64,000 nt of DNA, from positions 1-64,000 of the IMG/VR virus record IMGVR_UViG_3300045988_133024. One strand, given 5' to 3'. Shown one piece after another: positions 799-53,061 of the stretch (positions within the stretch are counted from its first letter, which is position 1; each line of letters opens with the position of its first letter). The position numbers and the translations under genes were made by a program. The notes below the pieces were generated by a model that was not told the DNA's origin, did not search any database, and saw nothing but the letters and a program-made list of their open reading frames with translations. The DNA is from a virus.

Positions 799-1761
799 AT
801 GGCAGCAACACAGTTTGAAGTTATTAAAACAGTAAAAAATAATAACACAGAAAAATCCGAAACAAAGATCAAAAGACGCAAGGACGGAAACCCTAAATGG
901 ACTCGATCTAACAAACAGAAAGGTGTATCATCTTTAGTTTATCCGATTAAGAATCCAGAGAAGTTTAAGGCTTTCTGTGATTATTTTTTTGAGCAGATTG
1001 ATTCTGCGTATACGGATTATAAGAAATATGTTGCTGCTAGAAACTATCTTCTAGTATGCATTGGAAACAATACAGCCTATCGTATTTCTGATATCGTCAG
1101 ACTTAAATGGTGTGATTTGTTAGGAGATAATGATCGTGTGAGAAAGCAAGAGAAAAAAACAAAGAAGTTCAGAACTGTATTTTTCAATGATATTGTAAAA
1201 AAGGCAGTAGAGATTTTCTTTGATGCAATTGCAGGAACAAGGTATGATATTAGAGTTGATAGAGAAATTCCAATGGATAATTATATTTTCTGCACATGTA
1301 AGTCAGGATCAGATGGACATATGACAGAAGCTAATGCCTTAGATTTTGTGAAAAAGGGAGCAAGGGCAGTAGGTATTGAAGATAACGTAGGAACTCATAC
1401 ATTGCGAAAAAACTTTGTCTACTGGACTCTTGTAACACACAAGAATGATCAGAACGTACTGTATGAGTTAATGCGATTGATGAACCATAGCAACCCAGCT
1501 ATGACATTTTTGTACGCAACAATTACCGAGGAAGAAACACATGAGTTATTCTGCGACATTTCTGATACGTACAAGGATATTATTAAAGGCATTTTTGATG
1601 GAAAGAATAAGAATCTTGTGACAGCAAGTAAAGACTACATCTTAGATTTGATTAAATGTGCTTATGATATGGGGCAGCAAGATGCAAATGAACAAGATTA
1701 TAACGTGCATATGGATAATTTAGAAACATTGGAAGAATTATTGAATGAGATTATTAAGTAA
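799..1761 (+). CDS. tyrosine recombinase / phage integrase family
   Basis: Box I 'AYRISDIVRLKWCDL' carries the Arg. 'GTHTLRKNF' matches the HxxR motif. 'MNHSNPAMTFLYATI' carries the His and the catalytic Tyr. RBS 'aggagaggtg'. Confidence 0.65.
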   Translation: MAATQFEVIKTVKNNNTEKSETKIKRRKDGNPKWTRSNKQKGVSSLVYPIKNPEKFKAFCDYFFEQIDSAYTDYKKYVAARNYLLVCIGNNTAYRISDIVRLKWCDLLGDNDRVRKQEKKTKKFRTVFFNDIVKKAVEIFFDAIAGTRYDIRVDREIPMDNYIFCTCKSGSDGHMTEANALDFVKKGARAVGIEDNVGTHTLRKNFVYWTLVTHKNDQNVLYELMRLMNHSNPAMTFLYATITEEETHELFCDISDTYKDIIKGIFDGKNKNLVTASKDYILDLIKCAYDMGQQDANEQDYNVHMDNLETLEELLNEIIK

Positions 1762-3517: not shown

Positions 3518-4546
3518 ATGAATAATAAAGAATTTATAGAAAATTATATAAAGACAAAAGTTCCAGAGTCAGCACGACCAGGATGGGAATGGATGTTGGA
3601 TTCTGATCTTGCAAGAGAGGACGAACAGGGCTTAACATACGCTCCAGGAACAATCCAAGAGGCTATGTTAAGGGCAGGAAAAGGGACTGCAAGAAATCGA
3701 ACCATGAATTCTATTGTGAAAAGATATAAACAACTTGTAGATTTATACACCTACGCAAATGAATGTAACTATATAAAATATAATCCATTCAAAAGCGATA
3801 AATTCATTGATCTACAAATCGTTGTGGATATTTATTTTTCCAATCAGGTCAACGTGAACTATGTGTCGAAAGAACAATTGAACGAACTTCTGATAGCTTT
3901 AGCTCTGCGTAAAAAGCCTTTGGATAAAAAAACAAGGTTGCAAATCGTACTATATCTAGTAAGTTTGTATAACGGTATTGATGCTGACGCCTTAAAGGAC
4001 TTAAAGTTTTCTGAAATCGACGAAGAGAAACAAACGATCTCAGGGAAACCAATTGGTAAAAACTTTTTAGATATGATTGCATACTATAAAAACGCAATGG
4101 GTGAGAATATTTATGAAGATCATATAATTATTCCATCATACAAATGTGATGATTTGCAGGAATATAAAAAAGCACAAGACCGTATTGGCTACAATATCAG
4201 ATTTTTGTTTAATACGCTTGGCAAATCGTTAAATTATTATAAAATGTCAAAAAATGACGTTATTAATTCTGGGTTTGTACAGTATTTAAAATCAAGAATG
4301 AGCATTGAATCAATATCTGAACTGTATTATGTTAAACCAAAGGATGGTGTAGCGAGATCATTAAATGCTAAGATGTTCAATGATATTGCGATTGATTTTT
4401 ATTACAAATACTATAAAACATATAGATTGGATGACGTACCGTATAATTTTAGTAGGAGACAAACGGTAATTGGGAAAACGATCAGTTATCTATATCAAGA
4501 TGAAGATTACAAGAATTATCGTGTGCATCAAATCATGACAGAGTAA
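3518..4546 (+). CDS. hypothetical protein
   Basis: 342-aa ORF. RBS 'ggag' 8 nt upstream. Confidence 0.55.
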   Translation: MNNKEFIENYIKTKVPESARPGWEWMLDSDLAREDEQGLTYAPGTIQEAMLRAGKGTARNRTMNSIVKRYKQLVDLYTYANECNYIKYNPFKSDKFIDLQIVVDIYFSNQVNVNYVSKEQLNELLIALALRKKPLDKKTRLQIVLYLVSLYNGIDADALKDLKFSEIDEEKQTISGKPIGKNFLDMIAYYKNAMGENIYEDHIIIPSYKCDDLQEYKKAQDRIGYNIRFLFNTLGKSLNYYKMSKNDVINSGFVQYLKSRMSIESISELYYVKPKDGVARSLNAKMFNDIAIDFYYKYYKTYRLDDVPYNFSRRQTVIGKTISYLYQDEDYKNYRVHQIMTE

Positions 4547-4558
4547 AGGAAGGGATTT

Positions 4559-4930
4559 TTGTATATGGACAATCAAATATTAAACATGTTGGTAGCGAAT
4601 CAATCAAATCAAATGCGTGTTGATGTACTTGATTTACACTCGTCAGAAATGTCATCTTGGTTTCTGAGCGAATATAAGATTCGGGCAGATGATGGGAAGA
4701 TAAAAATCTATGGCAAAGATAAAGATCTTTCATATCATTGGATCGAATTTATTCAAGATGAGAATTTGTTCTCTCATATTAAGCAGGACGACATATTTGA
4801 CATAATCAAATGCCTGCAATTTACATACAAAGAGAGATACAATGTTGGAATAAAAATACAGACAACAAAAAAGAAAGCAGAAGTCTTTGGCAAAACTTCT
4901 ACTTTCACACAAACTAATAATTCTAACTAA
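4559..4930 (+). CDS. hypothetical protein
   Basis: 123-aa ORF immediately downstream of the previous gene. Confidence 0.5.
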   Translation: MYMDNQILNMLVANQSNQMRVDVLDLHSSEMSSWFLSEYKIRADDGKIKIYGKDKDLSYHWIEFIQDENLFSHIKQDDIFDIIKCLQFTYKERYNVGIKIQTTKKKAEVFGKTSTFTQTNNSN

Positions 4931-6308: not shown

Positions 6309-7706
6309 ATGGATAAAAATAAAACGGGCGTTTGGATACAGGACTTAGAAGGTAGAACGTACCCTTATAAAGAAGCAGATGGTACATATAAAGGAATTGT
6401 AGGAGATACAGTTATTGTTGGTACGTCTAGTATGATTGCTACATTTACAATTGAAAATATATCGTATCAAAAACTTCCATTTACAATGATTAATTACCAA
6501 ATTAAGCCAATGTATTTTGGAAAGAAGGATAACGATATATGGAAATCGTATGATTGCAGCGATGCCAAACAAATAGAGATGTTTCTGAGAGACGGTACAG
6601 CAGTGATTATTGTTCCGTTTGATTATGATAAAAGTCAGTATAGAACAAAAAGCATTTCTTCAGATGAAGCAATGATTACCTTTTATGAACAAAATCAGAA
6701 TAAGATGGAAACGATCTTGTTTGGTGAGCCGACAGTAGGGAAGACCTATCCACTTCAAACAATGAACGAGGATCTTGAGATTCAGACAGGTACGATTTCA
6801 GCCGACGAAATACAGGTTGATACATTGACTCTACCGTCACTTTCAGAAAGAAGAGTGTCTGCTCTGCCACACTATCAGCAAAAACCAATTACCGCAACGT
6901 CAGAACCAATAAAGAATGAGGCTGGTGAGCTTTCAACCACAGGGAAATCATGGATGATACATGACGACCGTGGGTTGAGTCCTTATGCACCAACACATAT
7001 TGATTGGAATGGTGAAATGAGTGCAACTTTAACATTTGCGCCAGAAAAATTGGATGAAATCATGAGTGAACTTACAGGAAACGAAGAGGAGAAAGATATG
7101 AATACAGAAAAATTAAAAGACAAAATCAAAAAAGTTATTTATGTAGACAAAGAGATGACAGTTAGGGAACCTGTTTTAGATAGTAATGGTAAGCCACTCG
7201 AAAGAGGTGGTAAACCAGTAACTAAGGCTAAATTTTACAGAGGTATGGTTAAGGTGGTTTGGAACTGTGGTACTGAAACTGTTGCTTATACAAGCAGATT
7301 CGACAGATTTAACAGAGAAGAAGGTTTCAAGACTTGTGTATTAAAATACCTGTTTGGTAACGCAGGTGCTCATGATGCAGTTGACTTCTGGACAAACAAA
7401 TATGTGAAATATCCAAGTAGCTGCATTGAAGTAACAGAAAATTTATGCAAATTGGAAGAGATCATCGAGAATGATAAGCAGAGAGAAGAGGAACGAAAAG
7501 GTTTGCCTTATGCAAAATTCTTAAGAAGAACGGTGGATCGTTTAGTACCTAGCTTTTCAGATGACAAATTACATTATGCACCAGAAGATGAAAAGCTTGC
7601 TAATGAATTTAAGAAATTAGCAAAGAAATATTTTCCAGAACTTAAATGTAGGGAAATTTATATTAATGATAGAAAACAGGAAGACGTTTTCGTAGCAATT
7701 AAATAA
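6309..7706 (+). CDS. hypothetical protein
   Basis: 465-aa ORF. RBS 'aaaggagaa'. Confidence 0.55.
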   Translation: MDKNKTGVWIQDLEGRTYPYKEADGTYKGIVGDTVIVGTSSMIATFTIENISYQKLPFTMINYQIKPMYFGKKDNDIWKSYDCSDAKQIEMFLRDGTAVIIVPFDYDKSQYRTKSISSDEAMITFYEQNQNKMETILFGEPTVGKTYPLQTMNEDLEIQTGTISADEIQVDTLTLPSLSERRVSALPHYQQKPITATSEPIKNEAGELSTTGKSWMIHDDRGLSPYAPTHIDWNGEMSATLTFAPEKLDEIMSELTGNEEEKDMNTEKLKDKIKKVIYVDKEMTVREPVLDSNGKPLERGGKPVTKAKFYRGMVKVVWNCGTETVAYTSRFDRFNREEGFKTCVLKYLFGNAGAHDAVDFWTNKYVKYPSSCIEVTENLCKLEEIIENDKQREEERKGLPYAKFLRRTVDRLVPSFSDDKLHYAPEDEKLANEFKKLAKKYFPELKCREIYINDRKQEDVFVAIK

Positions 7707-11379: not shown

Positions 11380-12216
11380 ATGATTACTATTGGTGGAGTA
11401 CCAGTTGTTCCAGAATCTTTTCCAGATGGAACACAGAAAATTGGTTTGCCGTTAGGAGCAATGAGATCACGGATTGCAGTAAATAAATTTGTATCAATTG
11501 AATGGCTGTATGAATCAGATAAAGAATTATTTTCGCTATATTGTATTTCAAAAAGTATTCGAGAATATTTCCCACATTTATCACAGTGTTTAGTGATGCC
11601 GTATATTCCGAATGCAAGATTTGACAGGGTTAAAGATCATAACGAATGTTTTACATTAAAATATTTTGCAGAAATCATCAATGAATTAAATTTTAGAAAT
11701 GTCATCGTAACAGATCCTCACTCAGACGTTTCTAAAGCATTGATTGATCACCTACAATATATACCAATTAAACTATATATTTCTAAGGTTTGCAATAAAG
11801 TCCTTAAAGCAGAGCCATCAAGAAATCTCGTAATTTATTTTCCAGATAGCGGATCACTAAAAAGATATTCTGAATTTGTATCAGATGATTATCCGATTGT
11901 CTATGGAATTAAAAATCGGGATTGGAAGACAGGAGAAATTCTTGGTATTGAGATTCATGGAGATACAGATAAATTAGATGAGAATACAGCAATTCTAATG
12001 ATTGATGATATTTGTAGTAAGGGTGGCACATTTTATTATGGATCAAAAGAATTAAACAAATACGGTTGTAAAGATATGTATTTATATGTTACTCACTGTG
12101 AAAACACAATTCTTGATGGCGAATTATTAAAGGAAGATAGTTTGTTTAAAAAAGTGTATACGACACGTAGTATTTTTACAAAAGAACATGAGAAAGTTGA
12201 GGTGTTAGATTTATGA
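11380..12216 (+). CDS. ribose-phosphate pyrophosphokinase (Prs)-like protein; candidate ADPR-pyrophosphate synthetase of a NARP1-type NAD+ reconstitution pair
   Basis: PRPP/phosphoribosyltransferase-type loop 'AILMIDDICSKGGTF'. A Prs-like 'VIVTDPHS' motif. The stop overlaps the start of the downstream NAMPT-like gene. Confidence 0.55.
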   Translation: MITIGGVPVVPESFPDGTQKIGLPLGAMRSRIAVNKFVSIEWLYESDKELFSLYCISKSIREYFPHLSQCLVMPYIPNARFDRVKDHNECFTLKYFAEIINELNFRNVIVTDPHSDVSKALIDHLQYIPIKLYISKVCNKVLKAEPSRNLVIYFPDSGSLKRYSEFVSDDYPIVYGIKNRDWKTGEILGIEIHGDTDKLDENTAILMIDDICSKGGTFYYGSKELNKYGCKDMYLYVTHCENTILDGELLKEDSLFKKVYTTRSIFTKEHEKVEVLDL

Positions 12217-13679
12217 AACAGACAAATCCAATGTTATTAATTGATTTTTATAAAGCAGTTCATGCTGAAATGTTACCAAAAGGTATTACAAAATCTGTTT
12301 CTTATTTTACTCCACGTATGAGCAGGGTAAAACGATGGAACGAAGTCGTGATGTTTGGGTTACAGGGATTCATTAAAGAATATCTGATTGATTATTTTAA
12401 TAAGAATTTCTTTGATCTTAAAGGTGGAGCAGTTACTTCTTACAAGAGGATTATGGACGCAGCTCTTGGAGAAAATACTTATGGATTACAGAAAATCGCA
12501 GATCTTTATGAGCTTGGTTATCTTCCGATTGAGATTAAAGCACTTCCCGAAGGAACTTTAGCACCAATGCATGTGCCGATGTTTAGTATTGAGAATACTC
12601 ACAAAGATTTTGCATGGTTACCACAGGCATTAGAAAGTTTAATTTCCGCAGAAATGTGGCATCCGATGATTGCTGCGACTGTCGGGCATACATATAGACA
12701 GATTGTTAATAAGTTTTATGAAATGACTTGTGATGATGATATTGTAAAAGCTAAAGCATTAGGGGCTTTCGATTTTCGTGGCGAAGAATGTTTACAGTCT
12801 GCGGTTAAAGCAGGAGTAGGATGGTGTTTATCATTCTTAAATACAGCTACGGTTCCAACAATTCCATATTTAGAGAGAAATTATAACTGCGATTGTACGA
12901 AAGAACCAGTTGCTTTTGGTAGTCCGTCTACTGAGCATGCGGTCATGTGTAGTAATTATGCGATTGACGGAGATGAAGAGACTCTGATTAAAAGATTACT
13001 TACAGAGATTTATCCAAACACAAGCTTCTCAGCAGTATTGGATTCTTATGATTATTGGAATGTTGTAGAGAATATTCTTCCAAAACTCAAGAACGAGATT
13101 ATGAATCACAATGGATGTTTTCTTGTCAGAGGAGACTCAGGAGATTGTGTAGATGTAGTAACCAGAACAGTATTTAAGTTATGGGAAGAGTTTGGGGGAA
13201 CGACAAATACAAAAGGGTATAAAGTATTAGATCCTCATGTAAAAGCAATTTATGGAGATTCAATTACAATACAGAGGTGTGAGCAGATTTATGACATCTT
13301 AGAGAAAAATGGATTCGCAGCAAGTAATGTTGCACTTGGCGTAGGATCATTCTCATTCCAGTGTATCGAAGAAGATGGAGTTTTAAAACCATTTACAAGA
13401 GATACATTTAGCAGTTGTATTAAAGCAACGTATTGTGAGATTGATGGCAAACCATATCCAATTTTCAAGAATCCAAAAGATGGCGGATTTAAGAAATCTC
13501 AGAGAGGTTTATGTTATGTCTATAAAGGATCAGACGGTAAATTGACATTTAAAGATGGATATACTTCAGAAAATCTTCCAATGAACAACCTGCTTGAGAC
13601 AGTATTTAGAGATGGCAAGTTGGTAAAAGAGCAGTCATTACAGGAGATTAGAAGAGTGTTAAACGAAGGAGAATTTTAA
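12213..13679 (+). CDS. nicotinamide phosphoribosyltransferase (NAMPT/NadV)-family protein; candidate Namat of a NARP1-type pair
   Basis: N-terminal 'LLIDFYKAVH' matches the NAMPT 'D-x-YK-x-H' signature. The length (488 aa) fits the family. Start overlaps the upstream Prs-like gene. Confidence 0.6.
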   Translation: MKQTNPMLLIDFYKAVHAEMLPKGITKSVSYFTPRMSRVKRWNEVVMFGLQGFIKEYLIDYFNKNFFDLKGGAVTSYKRIMDAALGENTYGLQKIADLYELGYLPIEIKALPEGTLAPMHVPMFSIENTHKDFAWLPQALESLISAEMWHPMIAATVGHTYRQIVNKFYEMTCDDDIVKAKALGAFDFRGEECLQSAVKAGVGWCLSFLNTATVPTIPYLERNYNCDCTKEPVAFGSPSTEHAVMCSNYAIDGDEETLIKRLLTEIYPNTSFSAVLDSYDYWNVVENILPKLKNEIMNHNGCFLVRGDSGDCVDVVTRTVFKLWEEFGGTTNTKGYKVLDPHVKAIYGDSITIQRCEQIYDILEKNGFAASNVALGVGSFSFQCIEEDGVLKPFTRDTFSSCIKATYCEIDGKPYPIFKNPKDGGFKKSQRGLCYVYKGSDGKLTFKDGYTSENLPMNNLLETVFRDGKLVKEQSLQEIRRVLNEGEF

Positions 13680-14194: not shown

Positions 14195-14965
14195 ATGAGT
14201 TTTAATGCAAAAGAAACCAAAGACAGATTAGTGCAGTGGATTAGAGATTGGTTTGAAATTAATGGTAAAGGATGCAATGCCATTGTAGGAATTTCAGGAG
14301 GCAAGGATTCATCAGTTGTCGCAGCCTTATGCGTAGAAGCACTTGGCAAGAATCGAGTAATCGGTGTCATGATGCCACAGGGCGTACAGTCAGATATTGA
14401 GTATTCTCAGATGTTATGTAATCACTTAGGTATTGAAAATTATACAGTTAATATCTACGAGCCATGTTTAAGTATCAAGCATGAAGTATCAAGCGTATTA
14501 AATGGTAAATGGAGTAAGCAGAGTGCAACAAACTTACCTGCTCGTATCCGTATGGCTACATTATATGCTTTCGCACAGAGTATGAATGGTAGAGTGGCAA
14601 ATACTTGTAACTTATCTGAAGACTGGGTTGGATATGCGACCAGATATGGAGATTCAGCTGGAGATTTTAGTCCATTAAGTGATCTGACTGTGACAGAAGT
14701 TAAAGCAATTGGTAAAGTTCTGGGACTTCCAACAGAGTTAATCGAAAAAACTCCTACTGATGGGTTATGTGGCAAGACAGATGAAGATAATCTTGGATTT
14801 ACATACGAAGTGTTGGATGAATATATCAGAACAGGTGAATGCAAGGATAAAGTAGTGAGACAGATCATTGATGAAATGCATGAGAAGAATGTATTTAAAC
14901 TTGCTCCAATGCCTAAATTTATATCTGGTATGTGGATCGAGGCAGGAATGGAGTTGGATGATTAA
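14195..14965 (+). CDS. nadE: NH3-dependent NAD+ synthetase (NadE)-like PP-loop ATPase
   Basis: PP-loop 'GISGGKDSSV'. Size and architecture fit NadE. Confidence 0.65.
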   Translation: MSFNAKETKDRLVQWIRDWFEINGKGCNAIVGISGGKDSSVVAALCVEALGKNRVIGVMMPQGVQSDIEYSQMLCNHLGIENYTVNIYEPCLSIKHEVSSVLNGKWSKQSATNLPARIRMATLYAFAQSMNGRVANTCNLSEDWVGYATRYGDSAGDFSPLSDLTVTEVKAIGKVLGLPTELIEKTPTDGLCGKTDEDNLGFTYEVLDEYIRTGECKDKVVRQIIDEMHEKNVFKLAPMPKFISGMWIEAGMELDD

Positions 14966-17645: not shown

Positions 17646-17784
17646 GGAAACATAGCTCAGTTGGTAGAGCAGGCAAATACATAAATATTCATTTTTCTAC
17701 CTCCCTATAAGTATTTTGTTTATTTACATTTTAATTTTCATCACATATAAATTGCCGACACAGGTTCGATCCCTGTTGTTTCCA
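17646..17784 (+). tRNA. tRNA gene interrupted by a ~68-nt insertion in the anticodon loop; anticodon and isotype unresolved
   Basis: Acceptor stem ggaaaca/tgtttcc. D-arm gctc-agttggta-gagc. Anticodon stem ggcaa (17672-76) pairs with ttgcc (17752-56), and ~75 nt lie between them. T-arm acagg-ttcgatc-cctgt. Discriminator A. Confidence 0.5.
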
Positions 17785-21939: not shown

Positions 21940-22274
21940 TAAATAGAGTTGAGATTATATTGGGAACGCTTGTATGTAACATTATTGGTAACAAAATATT
22001 TGATAGTTTGTATCAAAAAGATAAACGTGTTAGTGATTTTCACAAGGATAATGATGTATCACTGCGTACTCGGACAGAAAATGATATGAAGCAATTAGAT
22101 ATGATGTTTGCTGATCAGGTTATTAGGATATTAAGAGATATTCAAAACCATTGGTTACCTGAAAGACCAATAATATACGGAGATGATCGTATGTATACAG
22201 AGTCACAATACCAGGCAGAAAAGATGCATCAGGCTATTGACGATGCCGTTACTGTGTTATTAGAAAAAATGTAA
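21936..22274 (+). CDS. hypothetical protein
   Basis: 112-aa ORF with overlapping start. Confidence 0.5.
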   Translation: MINRVEIILGTLVCNIIGNKIFDSLYQKDKRVSDFHKDNDVSLRTRTENDMKQLDMMFADQVIRILRDIQNHWLPERPIIYGDDRMYTESQYQAEKMHQAIDDAVTVLLEKM

Positions 22275-22289
22275 AGTGAGGTAATTAAT

Positions 22290-22601
22290 ATGGGAGCTAA
22301 TATTGAGTTTGCCATTGGCTATGCGATTGGGTTTTGTATCGTTGGAGTGATTGTATTCCTGAGATATGAAAAGAAGTTAGATCGGATGAGGCAGGCAAAT
22401 GTAAATCTGATCTTAGACAAGATGTCGTTTATGTCAGATGTAAGCGATAAAGAAAATGGTACATATAATAAGGAAGAAACTCGTTCAGATGTTAAGGACG
22501 CAGTGAAGTATGCAATGAAGAAAAGTCATCCAGACAATGGTGGTAGTGCAGATGATTTTCGAAAATTTAGAGAGCTTTATGAAGAAATGGAAGGTAAGTA
22601 A
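22290..22601 (+). CDS. membrane-anchored J-domain-like protein
   Basis: N-terminal TM segment. C-terminal 'KYAMKKSHPDNGGSADDFRKFRELYEEM' carries the HPD motif of DnaJ J-domains. Confidence 0.45.
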   Translation: MGANIEFAIGYAIGFCIVGVIVFLRYEKKLDRMRQANVNLILDKMSFMSDVSDKENGTYNKEETRSDVKDAVKYAMKKSHPDNGGSADDFRKFRELYEEMEGK

Positions 22602-22883
22602 ATGCTAAAGGTCGGAGATAGAGTTTATATTTATAGAATGAAGCCAGCGGCTAAAGGAGGTTTGGTTAGAAATAACGACAAAGGTACAATTACTCGCATC
22701 GGAACAGATGAGATTGGTCGCAGATATGGGTATAGATATATGACCGTTAAATTTGACAAACCAGTAAATATCTCTAATCGTGATATTTACTCTTTAGAAT
22801 TTTTTGAAAACAAGGATGATCGTAAGATAGGTAGAATACGAGATACTGGATTCTTACTATATGGTAGAAAATGTGAGGAATAA
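22602..22883 (+). CDS. hypothetical protein
   Basis: 93-aa ORF starting at the upstream stop. Confidence 0.5.
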   Translation: MLKVGDRVYIYRMKPAAKGGLVRNNDKGTITRIGTDEIGRRYGYRYMTVKFDKPVNISNRDIYSLEFFENKDDRKIGRIRDTGFLLYGRKCEE

Positions 22884-22888
22884 GACTT

Positions 22889-23074
22889 ATGAGTAAACAA
22901 GAATCATTGAAGTTTTTGCAAGGTTTGATTGACGAAGTAGAAAATTGGACAAAAGAGGATATCGAGCGAGGTCGGAAATTGATGGAGAAAATGAAAAAAG
23001 AAGAACCAAAAGAAGTTGAAAATAGTGATGGATATTGGGAATTTATAATGCCAGATGGTAAGGAAGTGAAGTAG
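22889..23074 (+). CDS. small hypothetical protein
   Basis: 61-aa ORF immediately upstream of the Cas12f/TnpB-like gene. Confidence 0.45.
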   Translation: MSKQESLKFLQGLIDEVENWTKEDIERGRKLMEKMKKEEPKEVENSDGYWEFIMPDGKEVK

Positions 23075-23076
23075 AT

Positions 23077-24705
23077 ATGGCTAAGAAACAAAATAAAAAT
23101 ACGATGCAGATCAATAGAAAAATTACTTTAATTCCAGTTGCAAGTGACAATGATGGTTGGAAGAAGAAGATGAATACATATCTTGAAAAATTTTATTTTG
23201 ACAAGAAAATTAAAGCCAAAGAAAGACAAATCAAAAATACGAGTAAACCAGAAAGAAAAGAAGAATACAAACAGCAGCTTACAGAATATAAAAAGCAACA
23301 AGAACAGTTCTTAAATGGTGAGCTTGAAGATTATACAAAGCAGATGGTTATGAGTTATACATATGATTTGGTAAGAGACTGTATGGAAAGTGAAGCAAGA
23401 CAGAAGAATTTCATAATGTCTTATATGTTCTCAGAGATGATCAGAGAAAAGGTCTGCTACTTAAAAAACAAGAAAGAAAAGGAAAAATGGGTAAATGACA
23501 ATATCAATGTTGCATTTAGAGTTAAAGGATCACCAAAGGGAAGTATCTTTGACGATGTTGAGATTTATAGTCCATTAAGAGCATTGAGTATTCAGGGATA
23601 TACTCAGGAATTAAAGGGGAGAGTTAAGAAATTCGCCACTGATGGTGGTTTAGACGGGAAGTTGGCAGTCGATAATTATAAATTAGATTCGCCATTTCAT
23701 ATGTCAAAGCAAGGATTTGATATTGTTCATGAATATGAAGACTTGACAGAGCTTAAAAAGAATATTGGTAAATCAAGTTGTGAAATATATGTGAATCTTG
23801 GTAACGGTGGCGTTCCTACATTCGCAAGATTTCAATTAGATTTTGGACACAAAGGCAATCGAGAAGAGTTAATTTCTACAATTACAAAAGTATTTACTGG
23901 CGAATATAAAGTATGTGGAAGTTCAATTCAGATTAATAAAAAGAATAAGATTATATTAAATCTTGGACTTGAAATTCCAAAAAGACTTACTGAATTAGAT
24001 GAAAACACGGTAGTTGGAGTCGATCTTGGGTTAGCAGTTCCAGCTGTATGCTCTTTAAATAATAATCAGTATAAGAAAGAGTATATTGGGGACGGAGAAG
24101 CTTTTGTAAAACAGCGAGGCAAAATTCAAAAAGAAAAACAGAGACTACAAAAAGCATTGAAACTTTCAAAGGGTGGACATGGAAGAAAGAGAAAAATGTT
24201 AGCCTTAGAAAGATTCAAAGAAAGAGAAGCAAATTTTGTAAATACTTATTGTCATAGAATCAGTAAAAAAGTTGTTGAATATGCACTTAAGAATAATGCC
24301 AAATATATCAATATTGAGAATTTAAAAGGATATGATTCTAGTAAATTTATTCTGAGAAATTGGAGTTTCTACCAGCTTCAGCAAGATATTACATATAAAG
24401 CAGAAAGATATGGTATTGAAGTAAGAAAAATCAATCCTGCATTTACTTCTCAAGTATGTAGTTTCTGTGGGTATTGGGAATCTGGACAGAGAATAAATCA
24501 GAAAACTTTTAAATGCGGAAATCCAAATTGTAAGAGTCATAATCTCAAATTTTTCAATGCAGATTATAATGCTGCAAGAAATATTTCAATGTCAACATTG
24601 TTTACAAGTGACAATTATAAGTTTGGAAAAGAATCTTTGCAAAAAGCAGCAGATTATTACGGAATTGATTTAGAAATTGATTCTGAAGACCAAGAAATTG
24701 CTTAA
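23077..24705 (+). CDS. Cas12f/TnpB-like RNA-guided nuclease candidate (split RuvC domain plus zinc finger)
   Basis: RuvC-I 'VVGVDLGLAVPAV'. RuvC-II 'AKYINIENLKGY'. Zinc finger 'CSFCGYW..CGNPNCKSH'. RuvC-III 'NADYNAARNI'. At 542 aa with the D/E/D spacing, it resembles miniature type V effectors. No tnpA or cas1/cas2 is adjacent. Confidence 0.75.
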   Translation: MAKKQNKNTMQINRKITLIPVASDNDGWKKKMNTYLEKFYFDKKIKAKERQIKNTSKPERKEEYKQQLTEYKKQQEQFLNGELEDYTKQMVMSYTYDLVRDCMESEARQKNFIMSYMFSEMIREKVCYLKNKKEKEKWVNDNINVAFRVKGSPKGSIFDDVEIYSPLRALSIQGYTQELKGRVKKFATDGGLDGKLAVDNYKLDSPFHMSKQGFDIVHEYEDLTELKKNIGKSSCEIYVNLGNGGVPTFARFQLDFGHKGNREELISTITKVFTGEYKVCGSSIQINKKNKIILNLGLEIPKRLTELDENTVVGVDLGLAVPAVCSLNNNQYKKEYIGDGEAFVKQRGKIQKEKQRLQKALKLSKGGHGRKRKMLALERFKEREANFVNTYCHRISKKVVEYALKNNAKYINIENLKGYDSSKFILRNWSFYQLQQDITYKAERYGIEVRKINPAFTSQVCSFCGYWESGQRINQKTFKCGNPNCKSHNLKFFNADYNAARNISMSTLFTSDNYKFGKESLQKAADYYGIDLEIDSEDQEIA

Positions 24706-24714
24706 ATTATCGAC

Positions 24715-24835
24715 TGTATATGGCATGTTTTGGATGAGGTGCCGAACTTCGTCGATCATAGAATATATGATTATGCCAAAAGTGAGGTGTGAATAGAAAT
24801 GCACTCACTAAAATTTGTGTAACTAGACAGAACGT
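24715..24835 (+). ncRNA. structured element A1 (candidate tracrRNA/omegaRNA-like scaffold) with a degenerate CRISPR half-repeat at its 3' end
   Basis: Starts 10 nt after the nuclease stop. Begins with 'tgtatatggcatgtttt', which is closed by '...ttatgcca' (ggcat/atgcc inverted repeat). Contains the hairpin agtgag-[17 nt]-ctcact. The tail 'taactagacagaac' resembles the 3' end of the array repeat ('taacataggtacagaac'). Confidence 0.4.
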
Positions 24836-24895
24836 AAAGTTTTGCATTGTATACATAATAAAGATTTGAGGTTTGAGAATTATTAAAAATTACAC

Positions 24896-24920
24896 AGATA
24901 CAAAACGGTTCTAGTGATCA
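24896..24920. repeat. direct repeat B1, 'agatacaaaacggttctagtgatca'
   Basis: Matches B2 at 22 of 25 positions. The two copies are 101 bp apart. Confidence 0.5.
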
Positions 24921-24996
24921 ATTCAAACATTCATAAGTTTTAGAATCATTAGAAATTATATAATTATAAAATATAGTATTAAATAAACATTTATGT

Positions 24997-25020
24997 AGAT
25001 ACAAAATGATTCTAGTGTCT
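24997..25020. repeat. direct repeat B2, 'agatacaaaatgattctagtgtct'
   Basis: Second copy of B1. The two copies flank a ~75-bp AT-rich segment containing the palindrome aattatataatt. Confidence 0.5.
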
Positions 25021-25069
25021 AAGACAATATATACAGGTTGATAAAACCTGTTATAACTACACAAATTAT

Positions 25070-25172
25070 TGTGTATGGCATGTTTCGAGAAATATCATCA
25101 CCAATATGATATTTCTGGTCATGGAGTATCATGACTATGCCAAAAGTGAGATTATATGATACTCACTAAAAT
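25070..25172 (+). ncRNA. structured element A2 (second copy of A1, 355 bp downstream), immediately upstream of the mini-array
   Basis: Shares 'tgtgtatggcatgttt...atgactatgccaaaagtgag-[11 nt]-ctcactaaaat' with A1. The internal perfect hairpin is agaaatatcat/atgatatttct. The loop sequences are variable. Confidence 0.4.
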
Positions 25173-25194
25173 GTATGTTAATTAAATATTCGAG

Positions 25195-25363
25195 GCTTAA
25201 GACCTATTAAATTTAACATAGGTACAGAACACATGATGCAGTATTTTTTTGAATCAATTATGTTTAAGACCTATCAGATTTAACATAGGTACAGAACTTG
25301 GCACATTACTGGATTGGCTAACCGATAGCACAAGACCTATCAAATTTAACAAAAATTAAAGGA
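25195..25363 (+). CRISPR. mini CRISPR-like array: 36-bp repeats at 25195-25230 and 25262-25297, plus a degenerate terminal repeat (~25328-25363); spacers of 31 and 30 nt
   Basis: R1 is gcttaagacctattaaatttaacataggtacagaac. R2 is gtttaagacctatcagatttaacataggtacagaac (3 mismatches). R3 keeps aagacctatcaaatttaac and then diverges. The period is 66-67 bp. The repeats carry an internal hairpin cctat/atagg. Confidence 0.55.
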
Positions 25364-25545
25364 AATTAAACAGAAAATGAAAACAAGGAAACAACGTAAA
25401 CAGGAAATAAAACGATTCTTTGATCGGCTGAGTCCTGAGGAATTGGACAAGCTATTAGAAAGAAATGGAATTAATGATAAAGAGTCTAATGAGGCTCTTT
25501 CATATAGAACTATAAAAGAAGAAATTGAGAAAGGAGAGACCTGAT

Positions 25546-25854
25546 ATGGCATATAAGTTGTATATTGAAACACAAAAGGAATATACGGGATGTAGTCCAC
25601 AGCTGGAGGTATTAAATGTAAGAGATTGCAAACATGTCATTGCATCATTAGATCATTACCCACCTACAGCTGAGGAGGTTAAGAAAGCAGCTTGTATATT
25701 AATCGGACAATGTATTTACAAACGTATTTGTAGCATGGAAATCGACATTGATATTTTGGATATGCATTGTTCTCCGCCAAAAGAAATGACGATTGAAGAA
25801 ATCGAAAAAGAACTCGGTCATAAAGTAAAAATTGTAGAGGAGAAAGAAAAATGA
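25546..25854 (+). CDS. hypothetical protein (start trimmed from 25525 to the ATG with RBS 'aaaggagag')
   Basis: 102-aa ORF. A 55-aa ORF at 25377..25544 directly after the array is also possible but has only a weak RBS. Confidence 0.5.
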   Translation: MAYKLYIETQKEYTGCSPQLEVLNVRDCKHVIASLDHYPPTAEEVKKAACILIGQCIYKRICSMEIDIDILDMHCSPPKEMTIEEIEKELGHKVKIVEEKEK

Positions 25855-26798
25855 AATGTTTTTATCATGTTGATCAAGACGGGATTGTGTCTGGATTCTA
25901 CGTCAGAAAAGCTTGTGAACAACGAGGCTTAGAGTTTGAACCAGAAGACTTCCGAAAAATTAATTACGGTATGAAATTCCCGTTTCATGACATTGAACAG
26001 GATGAATTCGTATTTATTGTAGACTACAGCATTGAGCCAGAAGAAATGTGGCAACTGCTTAGTATTACAAAGAATGTATTTTGGATTGATCATCATCAGT
26101 CTACGATTGAAGCGTATAAAGATTTCAAATGTGATGTGAAAGGAATTCGAATCACTGGAGCAGGTATTTCAGGAGCGAATTTGACATGGTTGTACTTTAA
26201 AGAAATGTGTGATGACAATTGGAAGCAAGTTGACAAAACAGATTATAAAAGAGGCAAAGCTTTGCTTGGTAGATATGAAATAGGAATCCCTATGTTGGCA
26301 AAATATACAGCAATGTGGGATACATTTTATTTTGGTGCAACGTCAAAAAAATTCATAAAAGCATTTCACTATGCATTTGAATCGTGTGATTTTGATGCAT
26401 TAAGTCCATTGCTAAACACGTTAAATGAAGATCAAGGAATTTATGAAGCAACAAAAATTATTGGTGATATGATAACAGATGGCTTATCAATTATTGAGTA
26501 TTTAGCAGCAAATGCAGAACAGTATCTCAGAGCATATGGTTTTGAAACCACCTTTGAAGGTCATAAAGTCTATGCAGTCAATCGAGCATTAATCAATTCT
26601 GATTTCTTCGAATCTATTGATGGTTCTAAATACGATATGTTTATTGGTTTCTCTTTTAACGGAAGTATGTGGGAATATCAGTTACGATCTGCAGAACAAG
26701 ATAAGGTTAATGTATATGAGCTTGCTGTGAAATATGGTGGTGGCGGTCATCCAAATGCAGCTGGATTTAGGAGTGATAAATATGTGTTAGGGGTGTGA
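25851..26798 (+). CDS. stand-alone DHH-DHHA1 phosphoesterase (NrnA / cyclic-nucleotide phosphodiesterase-like)
   Basis: DHH motif I 'YHVDQDGIVSG'. 'IDHHQS'. C-terminal DHHA1 motif 'GGGGHPNAAGF'. Confidence 0.55.
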   Translation: MKCFYHVDQDGIVSGFYVRKACEQRGLEFEPEDFRKINYGMKFPFHDIEQDEFVFIVDYSIEPEEMWQLLSITKNVFWIDHHQSTIEAYKDFKCDVKGIRITGAGISGANLTWLYFKEMCDDNWKQVDKTDYKRGKALLGRYEIGIPMLAKYTAMWDTFYFGATSKKFIKAFHYAFESCDFDALSPLLNTLNEDQGIYEATKIIGDMITDGLSIIEYLAANAEQYLRAYGFETTFEGHKVYAVNRALINSDFFESIDGSKYDMFIGFSFNGSMWEYQLRSAEQDKVNVYELAVKYGGGGHPNAAGFRSDKYVLGV

Positions 26799-26801
26799 TG
26801 T

Positions 26802-27605
26802 ATGTCAAGGAAAAATACAAGAGAATTTGAACTTGCTTTTAGTAAAAACAGAGATCCAGATTGGGAAGCAGATGTGGAAATTTATAGAAGAAGAAAGTTC
26901 GAAGTAGTGCGTGGTATTTGTCTTGGAGATGAGTTTGCTGAAATTGAGTCTTTAGAATACAAAAATTGTGACGAGTTAGATGAAATGTATTATCGTTTTG
27001 ATTATAATTTAAAAATGCTTATGAAGTCTTATTTGCATGAATATACAGATTATGTGCCAATCGAAACAATGCATATTACATCTCCTGCAATATTGTGTTG
27101 TGATGAAATTGTATTAAAAAACGGTGAGAAAATTTCTATTGATAACATATGTGGTGATAAATCAAATGGCAATGAAGTTTATAAATTATATTCTAATAGT
27201 ACATATACAGATGATGTATATTATGAATCTACTAAAGCATTAGTTTATGAATTGGCTAGTAAAGATGTTTGCAAGGCTATACATATAATGAAAGATATAA
27301 TGGACAAAGCGTATATAAAAGCAAGAAATGAACGAAGCATACATCCTTTTATTAGCCACTTGTTTAACGACCCTCCAATTCCATGTATTAAAAATAAATA
27401 TTCTATACATGATTTAGTAATGGGTACATTAAAATGCAGTGGTGATATTTATGAAGAAATAAACAAAGAAGTCCCAAATGCTATAGATATGATTGTGCCT
27501 CATCCTGGAAGACATGCAGAGTATTATTTTGGGTTAGATTATACAGATGAAGTAGAGCAATTCATTAAAGAACAGGAGGCAAAGAGATGTGAAGAAACTA
27601 AATGA
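26802..27605 (+). CDS. hypothetical protein
   Basis: 267-aa ORF. RBS 'aggggtg'. Confidence 0.5.
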   Translation: MSRKNTREFELAFSKNRDPDWEADVEIYRRRKFEVVRGICLGDEFAEIESLEYKNCDELDEMYYRFDYNLKMLMKSYLHEYTDYVPIETMHITSPAILCCDEIVLKNGEKISIDNICGDKSNGNEVYKLYSNSTYTDDVYYESTKALVYELASKDVCKAIHIMKDIMDKAYIKARNERSIHPFISHLFNDPPIPCIKNKYSIHDLVMGTLKCSGDIYEEINKEVPNAIDMIVPHPGRHAEYYFGLDYTDEVEQFIKEQEAKRCEETK

Positions 27606-52236: not shown

Positions 52237-53061
52237 ATGGCTTTAATTGGAGCGATTCTAGGAGATATTTGCGGTTCTCAATATGAGTTCCGCAGACCTC
52301 ATAATTTAGATTGGAAGAACTGTGAATTGTTTACAGATAAATGTAAATACACAGATGATACAGTTCTTAGTATTGCAACAGGTATGTGGTTGTTAGATGA
52401 AACCAATAAAGAACCTTGGGAGTTCTACTTAGAATATGGCAAGAAATATCCTGGTATGGGATATGGTGAAATGTTTGAAGACTGGTTGTACGATGATGGA
52501 AATCGTGTTAATGAAAGCTTTGGCAATGGATGTGCCATGAGGATTTCACCTATTACAATGTATTTTAATGGATTTGTTGATCGTCCAGACGTATCGAATT
52601 ATTACATAGATTTAGCACAATGGACATGTGAGAAAACTCATCGTCATGTGGAATCTTACAAAGGTGCATCGATTGTAACAGGCTGTTCTTTGATGGCGCT
52701 ATGGGGTAAATCAAAAGAAGAAATTTATCAATATGCATTAAAAAGTTATCCATCTCACCAGTATACATATGGCATTGATCGACCACTCGATGATTATAGA
52801 AAGAATTATGTTTGGTCAGCAACAGTTCAAGATAGTGTACCTGTGGCAATCAGATGCTTTTTAGAGAGTGAAGATTATGAATCGTTTTTAAGAAACGTAT
52901 TGTCTTTGCCATGTGATACAGACACAATTGCTGCTATTGGCGGTGGCATTGCAGAGGATTTCTATAGAAAAACACTTGATAATTCAAATGATCTTTTAGA
53001 AAGATATCTTCCGAAAGAATTATTAGATGATGTGAGTAAAATCTACAATGAAATGCCATAA
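52237..53061 (+). CDS. ADP-ribosylglycohydrolase (ARH/DraG family)
   Basis: N-terminal 'MALIGAILGDICGSQYEF' matches the ARH signature. 274 aa. Confidence 0.6.
   Translation: MALIGAILGDICGSQYEFRRPHNLDWKNCELFTDKCKYTDDTVLSIATGMWLLDETNKEPWEFYLEYGKKYPGMGYGEMFEDWLYDDGNRVNESFGNGCAMRISPITMYFNGFVDRPDVSNYYIDLAQWTCEKTHRHVESYKGASIVTGCSLMALWGKSKEEIYQYALKSYPSHQYTYGIDRPLDDYRKNYVWSATVQDSVPVAIRCFLESEDYESFLRNVLSLPCDTDTIAAIGGGIAEDFYRKTLDNSNDLLERYLPKELLDDVSKIYNEMP

Follow-up and report, generated by a model that had tools for sequence, protein, structure and literature searches.

Why would a large phage-like genome carry a nuclease gene of the TnpB/Cas12 kind, with no transposase to move it and no adaptation genes beside it? 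The gene in question lies in a 64,000-nucleotide stretch of DNA (positions 1 to 64,000 of the IMG/VR virus record IMGVR_UViG_3300045988_133024, hereafter the window, whose coordinates are used throughout unless another locus is named), where an earlier sequence-only reading had singled out a 542-amino-acid (aa) open reading frame (ORF) as a miniature Cas12f/TnpB-like nuclease followed by repeats. Our analysis indicates that the window probably encodes a phage-borne, adaptation-less type V-F CRISPR system with one active Cas12f and two tandem guide-RNA cassettes, each a scaffold resembling trans-activating CRISPR RNA (tracrRNA) followed by a repeat-spacer mini-array.

The ORF exists as described, with an ATG start, at 23077-24705 on the plus strand, and profile, sequence and fold matches identify it as cas12f, encoding a type V-F effector. 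The comparison with Cas12f and TnpB profiles that the sequence-only reading had named beforehand returned strong similarity with Cas12f nearest. The protein passes the threshold for the Pfam domain Cas12f1-like_TNB (1.4e-18; 67.3 bits against a cutoff of 26.3) and matches OrfB_IS605 (1.5e-10) and the NCBIfam model guided_TnpB (152 bits, cutoff 100), the latter marking only a superfamily-level membership common to all Cas12. It falls below the cutoff of NCBIfam CRISPR_Cas12f2 (111.8 against 450 bits), a model that spans the Cas12f2 (Cas14b) branch only. In a phmmer search of PDB the nearest chains were 8HR5 (1e-63), 9NZO/9NZR (1.8e-63) and 9NZP (4.7e-54), which are CnCas12f1, Al3Cas12f and RhCas12f, respectively (PMC13186708). 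All three are active nucleases. They were followed by 422- and 432-aa Cas12f chains (7WJU, 8J12 and relatives, ~1e-41) and Un1Cas12f1 (1e-26), with ISDra2 TnpB reached only at 1.5e-06.

Structure prediction and fold comparison, also named beforehand, led to the same family. An AlphaFold2 model computed from 35 family members (mean predicted local distance difference test score 86.9) retrieved Cas12f structures at all of Foldseek ranks 1-22 against PDB (1e-26 to 1e-13), then TnpB (1e-11) and Cas12p (2e-10). The TM-scores were low, at ~0.4, as is expected because an RNA-free multidomain model was compared with RNA- and DNA-bound complexes. By sequence and predicted fold, the window protein is best placed as a Cas12f of the Cas12f1/V-U3 group, nearer to Cas12f than to TnpB.

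The catalytic centre appears complete. All three acidic residues are present, as had been claimed, and D316, E414 and D496 occupy the catalytic positions when the protein is aligned with CnCas12f1 and Al3Cas12f (phmmer against PDB). They stand in the three motifs already picked out, RuvC-I (VVGVDLGLAVPAV/VVGVDLG), RuvC-II (YINIENLKGY) and RuvC-III (NADYNAARNI), at residue numbers that replace the earlier estimates of about 306, 410 and 497. A zinc finger is likewise present between RuvC-II and RuvC-III, with the spacing C461-x2-C464 ... C480-x4-C485, the second pair being Cx4C and not the CxxC first described. In an alignment of the window protein with 34 homologues, D316 is conserved in 30/35 sequences, E414 in 35/35, D496 in 32/35 and the cysteines C461, C464, C480 and C485 in 35/35. 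With triad and zinc finger intact, we predict that the nuclease is apparently active.

Five of the 35 relatives (P0084, P0091, P0099, P0109 and P0120) carry D316N in RuvC-I, and three of the five also carry D496E with NNARNV replacing NAARNI. Their clusters are large (415 members for P0091, 254 for P0109), which suggests a populous and probably nuclease-impaired sub-branch of this phage-associated Cas12f family, possibly acting as RNA-guided binders or regulators.

Could the gene instead be an ordinary IS200/IS605 TnpB with its omega-RNA, a selfish insertion sequence or the remnant of one, whose decayed transposon ends pass for repeats? The OrfB_IS605 and guided_TnpB matches point that way, PHROGs and the source annotations label relatives 'transposase', and the position of the first scaffold, against the 3' end of the ORF, is the one expected of an omega-RNA. 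We give this explanation almost no credence. Besides the closer similarity to Cas12f in both sequence and fold, the dedicated models score far below their cutoffs (IS200_TnpB 67 against 425 bits, IS607_TnpB 26.5 against 350 bits), the window's 64 kb hold a single gene copy and just two cassettes, and the repeats form true arrays of 36-nt repeats and 30-nt spacers, in which the guides are array spacers that vary between phages. As the sequence-only reading had it, the gene sits mid-operon among small phage genes: its start codon follows the preceding small ORF, which ends at 23074, by 2 nt, leaving no space for a transposon left end. The absence of tnpA, cas1, cas2 and cas4 was also borne out, in that the ten nearest genes gave no transposase or cas Pfam match (their sole match being a weak one to a DHH phosphoesterase). 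On L021, a 158,583-bp contig whose nuclease is 60% identical, the gene occupies the same slot, with the same three small ORFs directly upstream, genes for NAMPT, NAD synthase and a Band_7 protein further upstream and a sigma factor gene downstream; nothing annotated as Cas1, Cas2, Cas4 or transposase was found there within 10 kb on either side. Because the syntenic slot is kept at 60% protein identity, without a nearby transposase, cas12f is an old, vertically inherited gene of a large (up to 167 kb) gut phage-like lineage and not a recent insertion sequence. With strong Cas12f similarity, catalytic residues in their proper places and no insertion-sequence remnant, the phage-borne RNA-guided nuclease of the sequence-only reading is supported.

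What would guide this nuclease? Repeats and a mini-array do follow the gene, as first noticed, at a somewhat greater distance (stem 1 of the first scaffold starts at 24722, 17 nt past the stop codon and not within 10 nt) and in a different number, there being two scaffold-plus-array cassettes rather than one. These paralogous cassettes, A and B, fill 24715-25363 in the ~670 bases 3' of the gene, on the same plus strand. Each runs from a scaffold of ~100-110 nt through a variable linker to the heptamer ATTTGAG (ATTCGAG in B) and a mini-array with a degenerate last repeat. The repeats are 36 nt long, running from G to C, and the spacers measure 30, 31 and 30 nt, one in cassette A and two in B.

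The tracrRNA-like scaffold of cassette A (24722-24822) begins with stem 1 (24722-24726 paired with 24773-24777), which encloses a pseudoknot strand, GTTTTG (24727-24732), followed by two inner hairpins. A conserved GTGAG..CTCAC hairpin (24782-24808) and the anti-repeat ATTTGTGTAA (24813-24822) complete it; the anti-repeat pairs with its own repeat at 10/10 positions and the pseudoknot at 6/6. The leader end ATTTGAG (24864-24870), identical to the type II-A leader-anchoring motif, directly precedes mini-array A (24871-24972), which comprises repeat 1 (24871-24906), spacer A1 (24907-24936) and a degenerate terminal repeat (24937-24972). Cassette B follows the same plan, with a scaffold at 25077-25180 composed of stem 1 (25077-25081 with 25137-25141), the pseudoknot strand GTTTCG (25082-25087), the hairpin (25146-25166) and the anti-repeat ATGTATGTTA (25171-25180). 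Its leader end ATTCGAG (25188-25194) and mini-array together span 25188-25363, the latter made up of repeat 1 (25195-25230), spacer B1 (25231-25261), repeat 2 (25262-25297), spacer B2 (25298-25327) and degenerate repeat 3 (25328-25363). Minimum free energy folds of the two scaffolds have the same topology, with the pseudoknot strand unpaired (z = -3.4 each). No tracrRNA or omega-RNA family of Rfam was matched at gathering thresholds or in a permissive scan of 24600-25420.

The interval between the cassettes (24997-25051) holds a relic duplication and a hairpin (25033-25051). The former (24997-25017), which lies past the degenerate repeat, closely copies, over 21 nt, the junction at which repeat A1 ends and spacer A1 begins (AGATACAAAAT joined to GATTCTAGTG); it is missing from the relative L002 and probably arose by local duplication or gene conversion.

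Comparison with relatives ties each scaffold to its own repeats. We catalogued 47 cassettes in 17 loci, 32 of them distinct, and found 2-4 distinct cassettes per nuclease gene: four each (A, B, C and D) in the 99%-identical relatives L001 and L002, three in the 60%-identical L021, and, around the genes for distant phage Cas12f proteins (~440 aa), one cassette upstream and one or two downstream. Natural scaffolds range from about 60 to 110 nt and share an architecture with a loop, closed by stem 1, that opens with six bases complementary to the last six of the repeat and so forms the pseudoknot. This loop holds up to two extra hairpins of unrelated sequence, and none in the shortest scaffolds; after it come an A-rich linker, a near-invariant GTGAG...CTCAC hairpin and, four bases further on, a 10-nt anti-repeat whose complement is the repeat at positions -17 to -8. 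Overall, a scaffold is complementary to the last ~17 nt of its own 36-nt repeat. Within the window lineage the pseudoknot pairs are GTTTTG/CAAAAC (types A and C), GTTTCG/CGAAAC (B) and GTTCTG/CAGAAC (D), and stem 1 occurs as GGCAT/ATGCC, GGCAC/GTGCC, GGCGT/ACGCC and GGTGT/ACGCC. The 5' strands of this lineage can be aligned and are free of search bias. Across all clades, anti-repeat positions were set by sequence anchors, and pairing reaches 8.72/10 for cognate against 7.26/10 for non-cognate combinations (none of 10,000 permutations attained the observed total), with predicted duplex energies of -16.0 and -10.5 kcal/mol, respectively. Bias affects the corresponding all-clade permutations of stem 1 and the pseudoknot, in which distant 5' strands had been located by best complement, and these are not relied on. 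These comparisons show that the predicted scaffold-repeat complementarity has been maintained by compensatory changes across cassette types. Because the scaffold pairs with the repeat segment 5' of the spacer and engages the repeat's 3' end in a pseudoknot, its predicted geometry is that of a type V tracrRNA and not of a Cas9 tracrRNA.

Some cassettes of relatives, among them L004 cassettes 2 and 3 and L015 cassette 2, consist of a scaffold and a single repeat without a downstream repeat. In L004 (7960-8260) the next cassette starts 11 nt after the repeat of cassette 2, and the L015 case lies at ~7103-7140. These look like fixed single-guide or spacer-less units, similar to omega-RNA.

Might the cassettes be anti-CRISPR RNA decoys of the Racr or viral single-guide RNA (sgRNA) type, which would mimic II-A repeats and sequester host Cas9, tracrRNA or Cas1-Cas2 instead of guiding the phage nuclease? 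Their repeat ends and leader end do match type II-A, repeat mimics and sgRNA-like inhibitors of Cas9 are known from phages (bioRxiv 10.64898/2026.06.01.729453), and type II-A is enriched in Lachnospiraceae (p = 5e-27; PMC6739867). The geometry speaks against it, however, since a scaffold placed 5' of the repeat pairs with the repeat's spacer-proximal 3' half and engages its last 6 nt in a pseudoknot, whereas a Cas9 tracrRNA pairs with the downstream part. In addition, a cognate Cas12f gene is always adjacent, only ~8 nt at each repeat end are II-A-like (18-25/36 identities in all to II-A repeats), and spacers match rival phages beside 5' T-rich flanks of the Cas12 type. We regard a decoy function as very unlikely. 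An identity as a Cas9 viral sgRNA was also considered and rejected.

What might the system target? Spacer A1 (GGTTCTAGTGATCAATTCAAACATTCATAA), common to the window and L002, matches 29/30 positions beside a 5'-TTTA flank both in IMG/VR contig 3300045988_162445 (L017) and in the chromosome of Anaerostipes sp. MSJ-23 (L018). In both places the first 10 bases of the protospacer are the end of a truncated tRNA-Leu(TAG) gene, whose anticodon loop supplies the protospacer-adjacent motif (PAM), and the other 20 bases belong to the arm of an integrated element that begins with genes for two tyrosine recombinases. The element is a temperate phage, because it also encodes scaffold, major head, large terminase and portal proteins, and the A1 protospacer lies at the integrase-proximal attachment junction of an Anaerostipes prophage. 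A spacer of L003 matches 29/29 positions, with a TTTTT flank, at an intergenic site in six 'Ca. Heliusvirales' phages of Lachnospiraceae, Agathobacter, Coprococcus and Dorea. These matches support inter-phage targeting with a predicted T-rich 5' PAM and suggest that the host is Anaerostipes or a relative; of the roles first offered for the nuclease, inter-phage competition or host targeting, the A1 protospacer in a prophage thus provides a concrete instance.

In L018 (5960-6400, minus strand) ~90 nt of the integrase-proximal arm of the prophage occur twice, after a tRNA-Lys gene and after the truncated tRNA-Leu, which suggests successive or tandem integrations at a tRNA cluster. The truncated tRNA-Leu fragment has its own promoter-like TTGACA/TATACT.

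The chromosomal location of this match raises the alternative of a host-takeover weapon, in which the guides cut the host chromosome at the prophage-occupied tRNA-Leu gene and shut the host down. It would account for a protospacer in the Anaerostipes sp. MSJ-23 chromosome, at the junction of a tRNA-Leu 5' fragment with the element, and for a PAM within a tRNA anticodon loop. We nonetheless judge it unlikely: 20 of the 30 protospacer bases lie in the prophage arm and an unoccupied tRNA-Leu gene would match A1 over 10 nt only, the L003 target is an intergenic site in free Lachnospiraceae phage genomes, and no spacer matched core host genes in a scan of a single genome with spacer A1 only.

Searches with the remaining spacers were less productive. 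The seeds of B1 and B2 were not found in IMG/VR; in metagenomes the B2 seed had two matches, ending at 20 nt in GC-rich unrelated DNA, which we judged to be chance. Twelve spacers of the window, L001 and L002 had no match in INPHARED, and thirteen had none among the plasmids of PLSDB. The L001 cassette-A spacer and the second L002 cassette-C spacer were found in their own arrays only, and spacers compared with the window and all related loci examined gave neither self-targets nor cross-targets. The L001 cassette-D spacer matches 21 contiguous PAM-proximal nt, with its last 9 nt mismatched, in two IMG/VR contigs of 45 and 20 kb (L026 4041-4061 and L027 5090-5110), at a site upstream of a recombination module (annealing protein and exonuclease-like ORFs) with the 5' flank TTTTTCTG (TCTG). 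This could be a partial target or chance and, being ambiguous, is not used as support.

Not every part of the window locus is as regular as cassette A. Cassette B combines a type B scaffold (anti-repeat ATGTATGTT, pseudoknot strand GTTTCG) with a linker and repeats (..AACATAGGTACAGAAC) of type D and, as its sequence compares with those of L001 and L002, is a recombinant chimera of B-type scaffold and D-type repeats, because a ~540-nt deletion relative to those two loci has fused them. Its pseudoknot pairs at 5/6 and its anti-repeat at 9/10 positions, against 6/6 and 10/10 in the unrearranged cassettes of L001 and L002. A decaying relic, with the gene intact and the RNA cassettes nonfunctional in the window phage, would explain these imperfections together with the partial repeat/spacer relic at 24997-25017, the retention of only two of the four cassettes of 99%-identical relatives and the two of three spacers that have no known target. 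We consider it distinctly unlikely, given an intact cassette A (6/6 and 10/10) whose spacer has a near-perfect target and a full-length ORF with all catalytic residues. Moreover, the two spacers of cassette B, seen in no other locus, argue for recent acquisition after or despite the rearrangement.

Taken together, we favour a phage-borne V-F system that would work as follows. Each cassette would be transcribed from the scaffold into the array, and the scaffold would pair with repeat-spacer units, in cis with the first, as a natural single guide, and in trans with later ones. Cas12f, probably dimeric like its solved relatives, would load the guide RNA, read a 5' T-rich PAM (TTTA, seen once) and cut DNA complementary to the guide. 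Guided by A1, cutting would hit a resident or incoming competitor phage and break the lysogenic host chromosome.

Several observations weigh against this account. The PAM of the window orthologue rests on a single protospacer family (TTTA), a target could be identified for one of the three window spacers only, and the A1 protospacer is known here from the integrated junction, although it may also be present in the excised phage (attP). Cassette B may work poorly, since its pseudoknot and its anti-repeat duplex each contain a mismatch. A scan for sigma-70 promoters did no better than on shuffled sequences. Lastly, no virion gene (capsid, portal or terminase) lies inside the 64-kb window; that the element is a phage is well supported by gene content and IMG/VR membership, and a large plasmid or phage-plasmid is possible instead.

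How does a system without adaptation genes renew its spacers? Near-identical phages differ in their spacers, and in each case every spacer common to two loci is leader-distal and the leader-proximal ones differ (L006/L007 cassette 1, L013/L015 cassette 1, L013/L014 cassette 2 and cassette 3 of five loci). This polarity is what Cas1-Cas2 integration yields, yet no adaptation genes were found nearby in the phage. The leader-repeat junction reads ATTTGAG/GTTT exactly in cassette A and ATTCGAG/GCTT in cassette B. Of 40 distinct cassettes, 23 have this junction exactly and 33 with at most one mismatch, and the repeat starts with GTTT in 28, has G at position 1 in 35 and C at position 36 in 28; the linkers upstream of ATTTGAG are otherwise unalignable. 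Type II-A systems have 36-bp repeats and spacers of about 30 bp. The window arrays share with them the ATTTGAG leader end, 36-nt G-to-C repeats and ~30-nt spacers, and differ from them in having no Cas Pfam match among the ten nearest genes and a scaffold that pairs with the repeat upstream of the spacer. They are not a II-A system and at most borrow II-A integration signals.

These signals are those that the II-A machinery reads. ATTTGAG/GTTT is the conserved leader-repeat junction in 87/167 type II-A loci, and the last 10 nt of the leader with one repeat are enough for II-A adaptation (PMC5382924). The II-A integrase needs the leader end, a leader-proximal repeat block, a block at the repeat-spacer border and a 36-bp ruler, and tolerates changes in mid-repeat (PMC6895254). 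The features of the phage arrays that this machinery could read are the leader end ATTTGAG, the first repeat bases GTTTTAGA, the last bases ..AAAC, the 36-bp repeat length and the 30-bp spacers, and the 3' half of the repeat co-evolves with the Cas12f scaffold of its own cassette. An instructive relative is L028, the Clostridium botulinum plasmid pCB111 (NC_025146.1 73152-80246), which encodes a 41%-identical Cas12f-like protein and has one tracr-like region followed by a 7-repeat array (locus positions 4150-4880). Its scaffold has an ATTTA loop and an anti-repeat, ACATTCCAT, that pairs with its repeat. That 29-nt repeat (GTTTTATCTTAACTATATGGAATGTAAAT) equals a C. difficile type I-B repeat at 27/29 positions, and the leader ends in ..TTAGGG, like a I-B leader, with no ATTTGAG. 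Because this Cas12f locus lacks it, ATTTGAG is not required by Cas12f RNA biology; array features, of I-B style on pCB111 and of II-A style in the phages, would follow the CRISPR type resident in the host.

We therefore advance, as a tentative proposal that is possible rather than probable, that the phage arrays are hybrid repeats loaded in trans by host II-A adaptation machinery (Cas1-Cas2-Csn2-Cas9), and that adaptation-less Cas12f loci adopt the signals of the host-resident type (I-B on pCB111, II-A in Lachnospiraceae phages) and multiply as swappable, recombining cassettes. New spacers would probably enter at the leader-proximal repeat via a host-supplied Cas1-Cas2 integrase. Cross-type trans-adaptation has precedents in a VI-B system using II-C machinery (PMC8092290) and a plasmid IV-A3 system using I-E machinery (bioRxiv 10.1101/2023.06.23.546257), and viral mini-arrays are known to use host CRISPR machinery (PMC11656645). 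As in these precedents, an adaptation-less system on a mobile element here has an array with the leader and repeat signals of another type and spacers against competitors. The phage case differs in that the proposed donor is II-A and the recipient a phage V-F system, in that only the repeat and leader ends are shared, and in that the phage's own tracrRNA makes use of the repeat's 3' half as well.

How new is such a locus? Phage-borne Cas12f is unsurprising on its own, as adaptation-less V-F loci and phage type V systems are both known. The closest systems, Cas12f of V-F1/V-U3 loci in Clostridia and Bacilli (CnCas12f1, Al3Cas12f, RhCas12f and AsCas12f), share with the window a WED/REC N-terminal half, a tri-split RuvC and a TNB zinc finger, a tracrRNA layout with anti-repeat and pseudoknot to the repeat 3' end, and the lack of adaptation genes. 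Unlike them, the window gene lies in a large phage-like genome and not on a chromosome or plasmid, its lineage has 2-4 tandem scaffold-plus-mini-array cassettes where theirs have one tracrRNA and one array (compare pCB111), its scaffold is contiguous with repeat 1, and its leader-repeat junction is of the II-A kind. The window protein is also longer (542 aa), with ~170 N-terminal residues that cannot be aligned by sequence to CnCas12f1, and its apparent PAM is T-rich, whereas CnCas12f1 reportedly uses a C-rich PAM.

Phage-borne, adaptation-less type V systems already described are Cas12j/CasPhi, Cas-lambda, Cas12p (bioRxiv 10.1101/2025.01.20.633832), Cas12r of Thermus phages and CauTranC9. All resemble the window system in having a compact, phage-carried RuvC effector, no adaptation genes and a presumed aim at competing elements, and no multi-cassette organisation was described in the phage type V literature that we searched. 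Their effectors are of other protein families than the window nuclease, and Cas12j and Cas-lambda need no tracrRNA. Cas12p has a conserved AAAC:UUUG-type pseudoknot between repeat end and tracrRNA, as in the window (bioRxiv 10.1101/2025.01.20.633832), and belongs to a different family (fold rank 25 at 2e-10, against 1e-26 for Cas12f). An identity as a Cas12p 'hacker' was rejected, there being no Cas12p chain among the phmmer matches and the Cas12p structure 9JFS standing at that rank with 2.2e-10 and 14% identity. TnpB with its omega-RNA and the TranC intermediates are alike in that the scaffold directly follows the 3' end of the nuclease gene and runs on into the unit that bears the guide; the window locus differs from these in its Cas12f grouping, in its true arrays with spacer turnover and in the lack of transposon ends and transposase.

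In the literature searched, which lay outside most subscription journals and the TranC and virus-encoded CRISPR surveys, we found no tandem cassettes with distinct co-evolved repeats for one effector, no reshuffling of cassettes between near-identical phages and no II-A leader-repeat junction on a Cas12f array. Such reshuffling by recombination is what the near-identical phages of this lineage display. If the interpretation holds, several cassettes per effector would form a natural experiment on which guides and scaffolds are compatible, and would supply short natural scaffolds for Cas12f. Polarised turnover without Cas1 or Cas2, together with the II-A junction, would amount to a virus arming its own nuclease through the adaptation machinery of its host, across CRISPR types, and a guide on a prophage attachment junction would provide a model of how a large phage confronts temperate competitors in gut Lachnospiraceae.

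The genome around the locus is that of a large element. All 49 ORFs of at least 150 aa lie on the plus strand, and the GC content is ~33% throughout the window. PHROG matches include a DnaE-type polymerase, a DnaB-like helicase, a primase, a RecJ-like exonuclease, an exonuclease V/Dda-like helicase, an NAD-dependent ligase, a Sak4-like annealing protein, NrdD, a sigma factor, a methyltransferase, NAMPT and a tyrosine recombinase, a set that is the replication and nucleotide-metabolism block of a large phage. The polymerase is nearest to human-faecal 'Bacteriophage sp.' records (54% and 39% identity) and to large Clostridium phages, phiCD211 and c-st among them, and the 99%-identical nuclease loci lie on IMG/VR viral contigs of 98,855 and 166,770 bp. 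More than 1000 homologues occur in public data, many of them on contigs 90-230 kb long. Among the isolated phages of INPHARED the family is absent: tblastn with the protein reached only 32-38% identity there, over half its length, and megablast of 22000-27000 found no match.

Three further features of the window deserve mention. The tyrosine recombinase/integrase-like gene (799-1761, plus strand; phrog_216, 1.6e-30) may mean that the element is temperate or a phage-plasmid, or may serve dimer resolution. An Rfam tRNA match of 44.2 bits (17646-17784, plus strand, 139 nt), which ARAGORN did not call, has an anticodon stem (GGCAA...TTGCC) split by a ~65-nt AT-rich insert and may be an intron-containing or disrupted phage tRNA. 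NAMPT and ADP-ribosylglycohydrolase are encoded within the window (12213-13679, 14195-14965 and 52237-53061), apparently along with an ORF syntenic with the NAD synthase of L021, a set that we take to be reminiscent of phage NAD+-reconstitution counter-defence.

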